A stretch of DNA of 5,025 nt from an uncultured archaeon (GTDB lineage: Archaea; Asgardarchaeota; Jordiarchaeia; Jordiarchaeales; Jordiarchaeaceae), in contig CAZECW010000116.1 in assembly GCA_964510585.1 (NCBI GenBank), positions 1 through 5,025 on the forward strand, in the 5' to 3' direction. Below are positions 1-5,025 of this stretch, one piece after another. The number at the start of each line of letters is the position of its first letter. The first letter of the stretch is position 1. The notes beneath the pieces are model-generated. The model was not told where the DNA came from. It did no database searches and saw only the letters and a list, made by a program, of their open reading frames with translations. Made by a program: the position numbers and the translations under genes.

Positions 1-53
1 TGCGTCTTGTTTAGCCTCTTAAGCCCAAGCCAAACCCTTCAGCTACCAACAAC

Positions 54-63
54 TATTTATATA
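54..63. promoter_or_regulatory. TATA-like box inside element copy A (TTTATATA on plus, TATATAAATA on minus)
   Basis: tatttatata at 54-63, identical to 4975-4984. It fits an archaeal TATA box in either orientation. No transcript evidence. Confidence 0.45.
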
Positions 64-96
64 CCATACTTTCAAATAAACTTTCTGGCGATTCAT

Positions 97-121
97 CCCC
101 ACGACTAAAGTCGGGGGCTTT
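97..121 (-). repeat. Left-end subterminal hairpin plus AAAG guide tetranucleotide (TnpA Y1 recognition site)
   Basis: On the plus strand, cccc(97-100)-a-cgac(102-105)-taaa-gtcg(110-113)-gggg(114-117) forms an 8-bp stem with one bulge, followed by cttt (118-121), which is AAAG on the minus strand. Confidence 0.85.
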
Positions 122-135
122 CTCGCCAAGGTTTT

Positions 136-139
136 GTAA
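136..139 (-). other. TTAC insertion target / left cleavage tetranucleotide (candidate TAM core; context TTTTAC)
   Basis: Lies immediately outside the left end. TTAC is the target that pairs with the AAAG guide in IS608. Confidence 0.75.
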
Positions 140-344: not shown

Positions 345-1709
345 TTACACGATTGGTATTAATTTAATTTGGGGATATCCTTGGTTGTAGTCTGCCTCAA
401 CAACATAGGAGATCGATTTGGGTTTTAATGAGTTAAAGATTAGCACACCTCTCTTTTCCTCAATTTTCAAGTGGTAGTCGACTATGTTAGCTACTTCCTC
501 GAGTTCTTTAGTTCCGTGCTTTATGATAAATAATGCTAGCAACTTTTTCTTTTGAACCATGTATAGGATTGCTTCTAAAACTTCAGATATATTTTCCTCG
601 AATTCTACAAGAAGAGAATCTAAGCCAAATACGCCAAAATAGTTTTCAGGTTCAATTTTTCTGGACATTTCTTCGAATTGATAATAGAAGTCTTCTAAAA
701 TGTTTTGTTCACTCTTGTAGAGTTTTTCAAGCCCCCATCTCTTTTCCACCACATTTATTCTGTTTAGTCCTTCCTCCTGTATGAAGTCTGACAGCGAGGA
801 AAGGATTGTCTCCTTGCTTGTTCCAAGGGAAGGTATCACTATTACTCCTTTACCCTTTGATAGGAAATTAAGGGTCGTGGGTACTACCATTTGGATGTAT
901 GCTTCTCGACTAACATTTTTTCCAAGCTCCAAAAGCACTGTTGATCCCTTTCTGTATCCTCCCCTAAGAGCCTCATCTAAATCTTTGCTCCCTGTTGAAA
1001 AGTGAGACTCAGTGTCTGGCAGTGGTTCGAACCTCCTTCTTTCCTTGATTGCTGGAAGTTGAAACGGTTCGAAGTGTCTGAAGACTCCACCAAAAAGGGT
1101 GAAGAAATAAGTGTTTAATTTAAGGCAGGCGCCCTTCAGCTTCAGTATATGAAGCTCCCTCAGGAACTTATTCTCTGAACTCACCCTTCTTAGCAGTATA
1201 AGCCCATCAACCAGATAATCTAATTCTTTACTATCCTCATATTCACTTACAAAAACAAGACGCGAACCTGTTTCTTGCTGAATCTCAAAAAGTTCATAAT
1301 AAATATTTTCGCCCAGCACCTTTTGAATGCCCTCAAGGGAGTCCAGGATAACAAGAGAATCCTCTTTCTTCAAAAGTTTTTGGGAGAATTCTTTAATAAA
1401 GGTGGGTTTATCAGAGTATTCAATAAACTGGGTGACTTCTTTATCAACCTGTGTGGGGAAATTTTTTCTATAAACGTCTATTATTTGACTTGGCGGGATT
1501 TTCTCCATAACCTCTGGATAAGTTAGAGTTAAAGTTTTGGCGTTCACCCTTGTTGTCACATAGAAGCTATTTGGTTTTTTAAACATTGCAAGGAGAGATA
1601 GGGCCAAAATTGTTTTTCCAGTTCCCGGTTCACCCTTAATTAGGATAGAGGTAGAGGGCTTCTTAAAGAAGAATATCAACTCTCCAGGAATGGAAATTTT
1701 AAAACTCAT
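345..1709 (-). CDS. GvpD-like / KaiC-RAD55 superfamily double-domain P-loop ATPase (454 aa), with intact N-terminal P-loop and degenerate C-terminal domain
   Basis: Walker A GEPGTGKT (1611-1634), YVTTRV motif, Walker B LVILDS, VFVSE, DYLVDGLILL and LRELHILKLKG. The second RecA-like domain starts FSTGSKDLDEALRGGYRKGSTVLLELG and has no GKT. ATG at 1709, TAA at 345-347. Confidence 0.9.
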   Translation of the reverse strand: MSFKISIPGELIFFFKKPSTSILIKGEPGTGKTILALSLLAMFKKPNSFYVTTRVNAKTLTLTYPEVMEKIPPSQIIDVYRKNFPTQVDKEVTQFIEYSDKPTFIKEFSQKLLKKEDSLVILDSLEGIQKVLGENIYYELFEIQQETGSRLVFVSEYEDSKELDYLVDGLILLRRVSSENKFLRELHILKLKGACLKLNTYFFTLFGGVFRHFEPFQLPAIKERRRFEPLPDTESHFSTGSKDLDEALRGGYRKGSTVLLELGKNVSREAYIQMVVPTTLNFLSKGKGVIVIPSLGTSKETILSSLSDFIQEEGLNRINVVEKRWGLEKLYKSEQNILEDFYYQFEEMSRKIEPENYFGVFGLDSLLVEFEENISEVLEAILYMVQKKKLLALFIIKHGTKELEEVANIVDYHLKIEEKRGVLIFNSLKPKSISYVVEADYNQGYPQIKLIPIV

Positions 1710-2685: not shown

Positions 2686-2905
2686 AAGCAAGTCTTGGGG
2701 CGAAGCACCAAAATGCTTATAGGATGATGTGTTTAAAAAATATAATAATTATCAATAGAGATAGAATATAGAGATTCTCGAAGCTATCTGATTCTACATA
2801 TGTGATGTCTACAGTGGAGGGCAGACTAACTGGGCGATGTTTCACCTAATTAGAGGTTAGAACATGAGTTTCCAAGATCTCCCAGACTTCCGCAGAGAGT
2901 GTCAA
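2675..2905 (+). mobile_element. Decayed full-length relative of the IS608-type non-autonomous element, copy C, inverted relative to A and B
   Basis: Left end reads TCAC|AAAAACTTTG-AAAGC-AAGTCTTGGGG, against the intact TTAC|AAAACCTTGGCGAG-AAAGC-CCCCGACTTTAGTCGTGGGG. Segment 2702-2720 matches the intact element at 14/19, and 2812-2846 matches 4883-4849 (minus) at 22/35 ungapped. Right end reads AAGATCTCCCAGACTTCCGCAGAGAGTGTCAA, against AAGAATCTCCCGACTTTAGTCGCGGAGAGTGTCAA. Confidence 0.7.
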
Positions 2906-3012: not shown

Positions 3013-4449
3013 TTGAGTATTGGTAGCGTTCCCAGCGAATTGATGGAAATTTTGAATCAGCAGAAATGCTATAAGCTCTTGATAAAGGGTGCTCCTGGTA
3101 CTGGAAAAACTTTACTCGCCCTGAGTATATGCGAATTAATTAACCAAGGGGGCACAGCCCTTTACCTCACGTCAAGAGTGACGCCGGAGGAGCTATATGC
3201 AGAGTATCCATGGGTTAACAACTTGATACCTCCCAAAAACGTTCTGGACGCCACAGAATCAAGTTACCAGACGGGGGATATGGCGGTAGCCTTCAGGTAT
3301 TCGGATAAGCCAGCCTTTGTTCAAGCCATGTATGAAATATGCAGCAGGAAACCGAAGCCTAACGCCATAATAGTTGATAGCCTTGAATCCCTAAAAGAAA
3401 ATATGCAAGCCTCGAGGGAGGACTACTCAATTGAAAGATCCATAATGGATATCTCTCGAATAACTGGAACCCACATCATATTTGTTTCCGAAACAGATTG
3501 CGTCACACCAGTCGATTATCTTGTTGACGGTATAGTTAACCAGGTCAAATTAAACGAAAAAGTTTTCTTAAGGGTAACCGAAATTCAAAAGCTAAGAGGG
3601 ATAACTGTTCACTGCCCTAGGTACCTGTTTACCCTAGAAGGAGGGCGGTACCGTGTTCTGCCTCCCCAACGTTCCACACTAGACGACTTAATCAAAGGTT
3701 CCAAAGAGAAAAAGTTTGAACACATTAAAAATGTGGAAGGAAAAATCTCAACCGGAATTAAGTACCTTGACACAATTACTGGTGGAGGATACTCCTACGG
3801 GTCAGTTAATCTTATAGAGGTAGGCAGTGGGGTGGGAGAAGCCTACGACTATTTTTACCTCCCAACAATATATAATCACGTCCTGAATGGTGGAAACGTT
3901 CTTATAATTCCCCCATCTGGAATTTCCGCCCAAGTGATGAGAGGGATGATAGAGCCAGTGGTTGGTGAGGAGAACTTCAGAAACCACGTGAAAATAATAG
4001 ACTTTCAATTTGCAGGACCGAAGAGTGTCAAGGGGGAGCAGTGGGAGGTGATTCTTGAAGGCCGCAGTTTGCCCGAGGACTACCAAATAATGTATAATGA
4101 GACTAAGGCTTTGAGAAAGGGACAGAAATCAGTTTTAGTCATAATTTCTGCTGACACCATAGAATCTGTATACGCGTGGCAGAGCAGAGGAAATTGGAGT
4201 GTCGCCTCCCTGATTTCAAGAGGTGCCATTGAAGCGAAACAGACTGGAAACACAGCTATATGTTTAGCAAAGTATGGACAGAAAGAAATAGTCGACTACA
4301 TTAACCACATTTCTGATGAACACTTCAACGTCATAAACCTAGAAGGAACAGTTTTACTAAAAGGCGTTTTTCCCAGCCTCCCCGCCATGTATCCCGTTGC
4401 AGAAAGGAGTGAGGAGGGCCTCAGAGTAGACCTATTGCCCATAGTATAA
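3013..4449 (+). CDS. GvpD-like / KaiC-RAD55 superfamily double-domain P-loop ATPase (478 aa), paralog of 345-1709
   Basis: Walker A GAPGTGKT (3088-3111), LYLTSRV, Walker B AIIVDS, IFVSE, DYLVDGIV and LRVTEIQKLRG. The second domain ISTGIKYLDTITGGGYSYGSVNLIEVGSGVGE has a degenerate P-loop. TTG start with RBS. Confidence 0.9.
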   Translation: MSIGSVPSELMEILNQQKCYKLLIKGAPGTGKTLLALSICELINQGGTALYLTSRVTPEELYAEYPWVNNLIPPKNVLDATESSYQTGDMAVAFRYSDKPAFVQAMYEICSRKPKPNAIIVDSLESLKENMQASREDYSIERSIMDISRITGTHIIFVSETDCVTPVDYLVDGIVNQVKLNEKVFLRVTEIQKLRGITVHCPRYLFTLEGGRYRVLPPQRSTLDDLIKGSKEKKFEHIKNVEGKISTGIKYLDTITGGGYSYGSVNLIEVGSGVGEAYDYFYLPTIYNHVLNGGNVLIIPPSGISAQVMRGMIEPVVGEENFRNHVKIIDFQFAGPKSVKGEQWEVILEGRSLPEDYQIMYNETKALRKGQKSVLVIISADTIESVYAWQSRGNWSVASLISRGAIEAKQTGNTAICLAKYGQKEIVDYINHISDEHFNVINLEGTVLLKGVFPSLPAMYPVAERSEEGLRVDLLPIV

Positions 4450-4760: not shown

Positions 4761-4952
4761 TGAGGTTGCAGGACGATGTTTTGACACTCTCCGCGACTAA
4801 AGTCGGGAGATTCTTGCTTCTGGCTCATCGGGAGCCTTCGAGGCAACGGGTGTGCCACCACCCGGTTAACACGCCCTTCCCTCAAGGGGAACGGCGTCTA
4901 TGTTGGCACCCTCATGGGGGCTGCGTCTTGTTTAGCCCCTTAAGCCCAAGCC
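4761..4952 (-). ncRNA. Putative stand-alone TnpB-type omegaRNA/reRNA (scaffold about 4952-4781, flank-derived guide 4780 to about 4761)
   Basis: TATA box at 4984-4975. GC-rich hairpins at 4917-4939, 4871-4897, 4847-4864 and 4822-4836, plus the right-end hairpin 4788-4810. The loop UUGA (4885-4882) is complementary to the terminal UCAA. The tail GAAGCAAGAATCTCCC...GTCAA resembles tnpB element 3' ends. Boundaries are inferred. Confidence 0.6.
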
Positions 4953-5025
4953 AAACCCTTCAGCTACCAACAACTATTTATATACCATACTTTCAAATAA
5001 ACTTTCTGGCGATTCATCCCCACAA
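4922..5025 (+). repeat. Direct repeat of window positions 1-104
   Basis: 102/104 identical, with differences at 17/4938 (T/C) and 103/5024 (G/A). Confidence 0.97.
4975..4984. promoter_or_regulatory. TATA-like box inside element copy B, candidate omegaRNA promoter
   Basis: TATATAAATA on minus and TTTATATA on plus, about 25-30 nt upstream (minus strand) of the first GC-rich structured segment. Confidence 0.5.

Follow-up and report, generated by a model that had tools for sequence, protein, structure and literature searches.

The 276-nt element whose copies close both ends of the window (the whole stretch of DNA analyzed, 5,025 nt, which is one entire contig, G000:C116) is, judged by its relatives in the same genome, a parent insertion sequence (IS) without its interior: a left end and a probable tnpA promoter joined to the last ~150 nt of tnpB and the right end. 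The reading that we favor, and consider probable, is that it is a non-autonomous PATE from an IS608-type IS200/IS605 insertion sequence, which TnpA moves in trans and whose RNA is loaded in trans by TnpB for retention of the element. Elements of this kind have already been described; the present case is a very clean and very abundant one.

Anatomy of the element in the window

Self-comparison matched positions 1–102 of the window to 4922–5023 at 99%, so the contig begins and finishes within two copies of one repeat, referred to here as copies A and B. Their features, together with a decayed relic between them, are as follows.

1–135, minus strand: copy A, the left-end 135 nt (element positions 1–135) of another copy, truncated by the contig start; from the repeat match and blastn
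121–118, 117–97 and 63–54, minus strand: AAAG, left-end hairpin and TATA box of copy A
136–139, minus strand: TTAC, target and left cleavage tetranucleotide of copy A (TTAC in 79/80 left flanks genome-wide); it would also be the TAM for TnpB
2798–2905, plus strand: decayed parent-type relic (tnpB 3' end and right end), separate from copies A and B, ending in GAGAGTGTCAA; 21.6 bits with covariance model R1 (see below)
4761–4780, minus strand: flank, which would become the guide of an RNA extending past the right end, beginning AACATCGTCCTGCAACCTCA; assigned by position only
4781–4813, minus strand: right-end TnpA signals (GAAT 4813–4810, imperfect hairpin 4809–4789, TCAA 4784–4781), read from the sequence
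4781–4904, minus strand: omegaRNA scaffold homolog of 124 nt (R1, 151 bits) with the same modules as tnpB 3' ends, in the order AACATAG anchor, stem B, GTTAAC, stem C, stem D, GAAT, right-end hairpin, AGTGTCAA
4781–5025, minus strand: copy B of the 276-nt PATE (element positions 32–276); 100% self match, 88–98% identity to the 29 full copies elsewhere
4905–4971, minus strand: 5' domain of the predicted RNA, a long-range stem GTTGG.../...CCAAC around two hairpins; from folds
4975–4984, minus strand: predicted TATA box TATATAAATA, homologous to GGTATATTGATAG ~30 nt upstream of the parental tnpA ATG

Read on the minus strand, the right end of copy B consists of GAAT, a 21-nt imperfect hairpin, AGTG and TCAA, after which the flank begins with AACATCG. 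GAAT stands at the right-end guide position and is what we take to be the right guide of IS608. The left end, seen in copy A, has TTAC (139–136), then 18 nt ending in AAAG, and then a hairpin (117–97) closely similar to that of the right end; as a direct repeat the two hairpins are 84% alike, and there are no terminal inverted repeats. Cut short by the end of the contig, copy B is missing element positions 1–31, and the final two bases of the window depart from the family sequence. The 276-nt length is that of a composite of copies A and B. All 13 aligned mini copies end in ...GAGTGTCAA. In IS608 of Helicobacter pylori (PMC3201880), TTAC is the target and left cleavage site, AAAG the left guide and TCAA the right cleavage site; these three are identical here, and hairpins lie at both ends of both elements. 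The spacing given there differs slightly, the left spacing being 19 nt in IS608 and 18 nt here and the right cleavage site ending 10 nt from the hairpin foot in IS608 and 8 nt here. The hairpin sequences are unrelated to those of IS608, and the present element has no genes.

In 25 of the 29 full copies found in the genome, every reading frame is broken within the element, and Pfam gave no hits. A coding reading was considered for an antisense frame of 88 aa and rejected, as this frame is open in only 4/29 copies and likewise has no Pfam hit. A scan of the window against Rfam, with E up to 1, returned nothing at the element; its sole match, PK-repZ (E 0.14), lies away from the element and is a chance match. 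The 206-nt stretch on the RNA side folds at −83.3 kcal/mol (z = −2.87 against shuffles), with one C.A mismatch in stem D of the window copy. The part of the parental tnpB that encodes RuvC-III has its homolog in the 3' third of the 5' domain. We also considered a pseudoknot between the stem B loop (UUGA) and the terminal UCAA, and rejected it because the loop is not kept in other copies (CTAAA and CATGA variants), in parents or in relatives. The initial annotation had described an element of about 276 bp with IS608-type end signals divided between copies A and B, no coding capacity, GC-rich hairpins toward the right end, an internal TATA box and a flank after TCAA; all of these were recovered where it had placed them, the flank letter for letter (4780–4761) and the TATA box at 4984–4975 on the minus strand.

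Copy number and insertion sites

The genome (G000) comprises 3.78 Mb in 217 contigs, with 41.7% GC. Blastn with the composite found 29 full copies inside contigs, 271–280 nt long and 88–98% identical, together with fragments at contig ends, 62 of the left end and 46 of the right. Roughly one in four contig ends of the assembly (108/434) falls within the element, with overlaps typically of ~140 nt. Terminal probes counted at least 80 left ends, preceded by TTAC in 79 cases and by TCAC in one, and 72 right ends, each followed by a unique 20-mer. Target duplication is absent, since right flanks do not repeat the left flank, and the flanks share no common target. The at least 80 different insertion sites imply past mobility. 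A DNA search that covered 41 relatives recovered the full-length element from this genome alone, which marks it as a species-specific burst; the covariance model of the right half gave 84 matches in this genome versus 1–15 in each of five congeners.

Contigs of metagenomes X1–X4 were compared with one locus (L006:900–2400). The insertion there, at C169:12338–12612, is occupied in three hot-spring metagenomes from different studies (X1–X3), and the contigs contained no empty-site joint. Loose contig ends exactly at the element borders are many and reflect only the many insertion sites. In metagenome X1 the unitig depth of the element is ~65–88x that of the flank, in line with the copy count, such depths not being copy numbers. 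Of the 72 flanks, three recur elsewhere in the genome over 16 nt, and only one of these recurrences, in C154, follows TTAC. The 198 nt after the copy in C12 (C12:8956–9153) are 98% identical to those after a bare TTAC in C154 (C154:2124–2321), and the sequences before the two TTACs are unrelated. C154 was therefore rejected as a clean empty allele, as it shares the sequence after the site but not that before it; the pair suggests that the site was rearranged or that a second repeat starts immediately 3' of TTAC.

The element is a main cause of fragmentation of this assembly and hides the middle of the parent tnpB. It needs to be masked before other findings of a 'structured RNA' or a 'repeat' in the same genome are read.

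Parent insertion sequences in the same genome

Genes for Y1 transposases are present on contigs C169, C7 and C162 (Pfam Y1_Tnp, E 1e-32 to 1e-37, full-length profile match), and these parental tnpA genes are intact-looking. TnpB-type genes lie on C81, C8, C204, C13 and C124. The tnpA genes at C169, C7 and C162 are immediately preceded by the same ~60 nt that open the mini-element, with TTAC, AAAG and the hairpin, and the tnpB 3' ends on C8, C54, C45, C152 and C81 are immediately followed by its last ~36 nt. Of the parent IS, at least nine left and four right ends are visible; the whole parent is on no contig of the assembly. The nearest, C8-type tnpB is assembled only as an N-terminal part of ~190 aa and a C-terminal part of 107 aa, the assembly breaking in repeats, and residues ~190–280 were on no contig when searched by tblastn with the C81 protein. 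On C7, the query aligns with the tnpB copy in two segments that overlap, as a frameshift would produce. A full-length ortholog of the parent TnpB is found in the congener G004; it is 85% identical over the C-terminus and frameshifted near the N-terminus. The only intact tnpB of the clade in the genome is the 424-aa ORF on C81, and the stem D domain of its omegaRNA is much longer than that of the mini-element. Matches to Y1_Tnp, OrfB_IS605 and a zinc ribbon all fall in one stop-free frame of 571 aa at C81:5075–6787 (minus strand). The Y1 match of the tnpA part is weak and partial and this part looks degenerate, and the left-end hairpin there is unlike that of the mini-element.

The window itself holds the relic at 2798–2905 (plus strand), which is ~75% identical to its parent type, as judged by tblastn to residues 327–363 of the G004 TnpB and by DNA alignment to the C8 parent. 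It lies just upstream of a GvpD-like gene, and it accounts for inverted repeat I4 (2891–2907 with 4779–4795). Two paralogous GvpD-like/KaiC-like P-loop ATPase genes (Pfam GvpD_P-loop, GvpD_bR2, KaiC) are divergently arranged in the window at 345–1709 (minus strand) and 3013–4449 (plus strand). Their Walker A regions give rise to the 46-nt inverted repeat I1.

Homology and covariation of the omegaRNA scaffold

The tnpB 3' ends of the clade share one plan: AAyATAG, which encodes Leu-Asn-Ile after the RuvC-III aspartate; a variable hairpin B; GTTAAC; hairpin C, of 6 bp with the loop GTGGCA; a long stem D closed by TTGCTTC...GAAGCAA; GAATC; the right-end hairpin; and AGTGTCAA. This plan was found in the genome itself and at 30+ tnpB-linked loci of Bathyarchaeia, Nitrososphaeria, Methanomethylicia, Archaeoglobales and other thermophilic archaea. 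The mini-element contains every module in the same order, with a short stem D as in its nearest, C8-type parent. Covariance model R1, which was built from 13 mini copies only (124 positions, 42 pairs), recovers tnpB-linked regions of several archaeal lineages over their full length (E 1e-12 to 1e-20). By this match the last 124 nt of the element (4781–4904, minus strand) are a homolog of the tnpB 3' end plus right end, i.e., of the omegaRNA region.

Covariation was assessed in 48 sequences aligned by fitting to R1, a procedure that favors the structure, and the margin was large: 94.1% of cells were paired, compared with 44–52% when partners were slid by 1–3 columns. Both-sided changes were seen in 31/42 pairs, compensated cells numbered 202 versus 16–34 in the slid controls, and 0/500 shuffles reached any of the observed measures. 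An analysis of mini-elements and parents with MAFFT and RNAalifold missed stem D through misalignment and was replaced by module-wise folding and covariance-model alignment. Because TnpA also uses the right-end hairpin in its DNA form, covariation there is not specific to RNA; for stems B, C and D we know of no role with TnpA. Relative to the C8-type parent, two pairs have changed in stem B (GTGCC/GGCAC to ACGCC/GGCGT) and four in stem D (TTGGAGG/CTTCCAA to TTGCTTC/GAAGCAA), all of them compensated, and the B loop varies by one base in length among copies, shifting any reading frame. The constraint on the scaffold is thus, by its pattern of change, one of structure and not of coding. Small compensations also occur within the family. 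At the outer pair of stem C the consensus has T-A, the copies in the window and on C12 have C-G, and two further copies show the intermediate C.A. For the stem that closes the 5' domain, the family sequence is GTTGG/CCAAC, and an old copy of 85% identity (C49:13534) has GTCGG/CCGAC.

The genome harbors a second TnpB-less PATE family of ~330 nt (C58:28221–28557, C107:~6905–7233, C32:~13043–13370 and C21:232–398), with its own left end, a TATA-like box and an omegaRNA scaffold with a long stem D. Its copies carry two different versions of stem B, which suggests module exchange. Joins of a left end to an omegaRNA without TnpB were also observed elsewhere, at L032 (G001:C274), which still shows the first codons of tnpA, L036 (G014:C77), L083 (Thermoprotei MAG KM4324-16) and L086 (a Bathyarchaeia MAG). 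The congener G004 has about ten R1 matches of 110–116 nt versus only two matches to the parent TnpB fragment.

A predicted promoter, probably derived from tnpA

The stretch GGTATATAAATAGTTGTTGGTAGC of the mini-element aligns with GGTATATTGATAGATTTATGGTTATC of the parent, where it starts ~30 nt upstream of the tnpA ATG. An archaeal TATA box that drives an almost leaderless mRNA would be expected at this distance. Given this homology of the TATA region to sequence preceding the parental tnpA, the promoter of the mini-element is most likely the reused tnpA promoter, predicted now to be aimed at the omegaRNA. The transcript so predicted would have ~55–60 nt 5' of the scaffold, which would have to be tolerated or trimmed. 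Both the promoter and the read-through into the flank are predictions from sequence; among the sequencing runs listed as matching the stretch, 14 hot-spring metagenomes, none is on record as RNA.

The initial annotation had proposed that the element kept the ends, a promoter and the RNA scaffold while tnpA and tnpB were lost, and that this could be checked by counting copies with BLASTN, by finding a parent with the same ends and by a covariance model across copies. The checks bear the proposal out: the copies are there in the numbers given above, the same left end with tnpA and the same right end with the tnpB 3' end both occur in the genome, and pairing and both-sided changes exceed those of every shuffle. 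Parent copies, scaffold homology and covariation, and the match of the TATA region all agree with retention of these parts and loss of both genes. The functional part of the proposal, in which each copy would express a guide for TnpB to load in trans and so cut TTAC plus flank, stands as a prediction.

An RNA that is made but has a role other than guide homing is conceivable: it might be a decoy, titrating TnpB at the expense of the parent IS, or an outward mobile promoter or antisense RNA that alters expression of a neighboring gene. In this window such an RNA would run antisense toward the 3' end of the GvpD-like gene at 3013–4449. The predicted promoter does point out of the right end into host DNA, and by eye the ~100 nt of minus strand beyond 4781 contain no run of ≥5 T; the TATA variants described below differ by copy, as expected if local effects were under host selection. 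Nothing requires such a role, however. The scaffold is kept in full, including the guide-adjacent part, which would be superfluous for a simple promoter, and the flanks have no common target. We regard these other roles as quite improbable.

Variation among copies and the case for a passive element

Across the 29 full copies, the TATA core (element 71–84; window 4975–4984 in copy B) shows a variation of 6.7% per site, exceeded only by the A-rich spacer just 5' of it (8.8% per site), and the RNA-coding 190 nt beside it are almost invariant. Changes in the core are found in 12/29 copies (TACATAA, TATGTAA, TATACTA, TATACCA or a replaced segment) and could reflect relaxed constraint or copy-by-copy silencing of the promoter.

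Degraded TATA cores are also compatible with a passive PATE, which TnpA would move in trans, whose interior would be the leftover of an internal deletion, whose scaffold would be intact because the burst is recent, and in which neither RNA nor TnpB would have a role. At 88–98% identity among copies, conservation could largely reflect youth, and an intact cognate tnpB has not been assembled. Moreover, PATEs of Haloquadratum down to 52 bp still appear mobile (PMC3119063), so an RNA module is unnecessary for spread. Against this, the scaffold has diverged from its nearest parent, yet every changed pair of stems B and D is compensated. Variation within the family is 0.97% per site at paired scaffold positions and 2.6% at unpaired ones, 2.7 times less when paired, and the non-terminal 5' domain (element 85–152, 1.1% per site) is as conserved as the left end (1.55%). 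The same modules were kept, in addition, by a second, sequence-unrelated PATE family in the same genome and by PATEs elsewhere. A purely passive element thus seems to us unlikely, though less so than an RNA with some other role, and we retain the reading in which TnpB loads the RNA.

Putative partner nuclease

At the position of the canonical RuvC-II glutamate, the aligned TnpBs of the clade all have glycine, in the motif ISKIV-x-G-x-L. The alignment comprised the TnpB of C81 (L047:176–1447), the G004 ortholog (L088) and relatives from four other lineages (L056–L066). RuvC-I (DLG) and RuvC-III (RD/AD) are kept in the clade, and an unrelated TnpB of the same genome, on C204, has the usual, canonical LEDL. 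By these motifs the clade corresponds to those that Altae-Tran et al. (2023, PMC10691335) describe as 'rearranged RuvC-II', for which modeling puts an alternative glutamate in the active site and predicts activity. For the present E-to-G clade, nuclease activity is predicted from that published modeling only (PMC10691335).

Proposed life cycle

In the life cycle that we propose, TnpA of the parent IS would move the element as single-stranded DNA. The former tnpA promoter would start an RNA ~25 nt downstream of the TATA box, and this RNA would run through the scaffold, across TCAA and into the flank. TnpB from the parent IS would load the PATE RNA in trans and would then cut the scarless empty site left by excision, recognized by the TAM TTAC and 16–20 nt of flank, after which recombination with a sister copy would restore the element. 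Since TnpA would move the element and the TnpB cut at the empty site would restore it, the PATE would doubly exploit its parent, TnpA for spread and TnpB for retention.

A further-reaching proposal is that the ~80 PATE guides and the TnpB with rearranged RuvC-II (E to G) constitute a set of guides that the host tolerates and that is distributed over, and acts at, about 80 chromosomal sites, beyond selfish retention. We consider this a long shot. If it were true, the set might police excision across the population in a gene-drive-like manner, or modulate neighboring genes by DNA binding, and the copy-specific changes in the TATA box would tune which loci are active.

Comparison with known systems

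The initial annotation had implied that such an element was new. This does not hold, as both omegaRNA-encoding PATEs that need TnpB in trans and stand-alone mobilized omegaRNAs have been published (PMC10055086, PMC10691335). PATEs of the IS200/IS605 family in Geobacillus stearothermophilus 'often encode omegaRNAs' and are acted on in trans by TnpB of other IS copies (Meers et al., 2023, PMC10055086). Those PATE-like elements resemble the present one in being protein-free, in having ends in common with IS that bear tnpA/tnpB, and in the same model of retention (PMC10055086). They differ in host, which is archaeal here, in number ('several' there, at least 80 copies here), and in their TTGAT-type TAMs, whereas the IS608 code TTAC/TCAA is used here; the present family also has a partner TnpB clade with rearranged RuvC-II and an identifiable, predicted archaeal TATA promoter from tnpA.

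Stand-alone omegaRNAs that have evidently been mobilized act in trans with compatible effectors (Altae-Tran et al., 2023, PMC10691335). Those of OMEGA systems (Altae-Tran et al., 2021), as far as the summary in PMC10691335 describes them, are alike in having no effector or transposase gene and effector-bearing loci in the same genome; compared with that summary, the element here has a traceable promoter origin and parent IS, and is known from sequence alone. PATEs were defined by lack of terminal inverted repeats, subterminal palindromes, lack of target duplication, a length too short for a transposase, and expansions of >90% identity (Dyall-Smith et al., 2011, PMC3119063). The present element shows every one of these defining features, as do the homogeneous PATEs of Haloquadratum walsbyi such as HqIRS71. 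That description comes from halophiles, the present host being a thermophile, and it predates omegaRNA and gives no role to an RNA (PMC3119063).

What this case adds is a hot-spring archaeal host, a very high copy number, a traceable (predicted) promoter from tnpA, a partner clade with a rearranged catalytic site and a second PATE family. The biological role of stand-alone omegaRNAs has been stated to be unknown (Altae-Tran et al., 2023, PMC10691335), and the family described here is a good system in which to test it, offering at least 80 near-identical putative guide cassettes with known flanks, traceable parents, a defined predicted promoter and a TnpB clade whose catalytic site is rearranged, within a single thermophilic archaeon.
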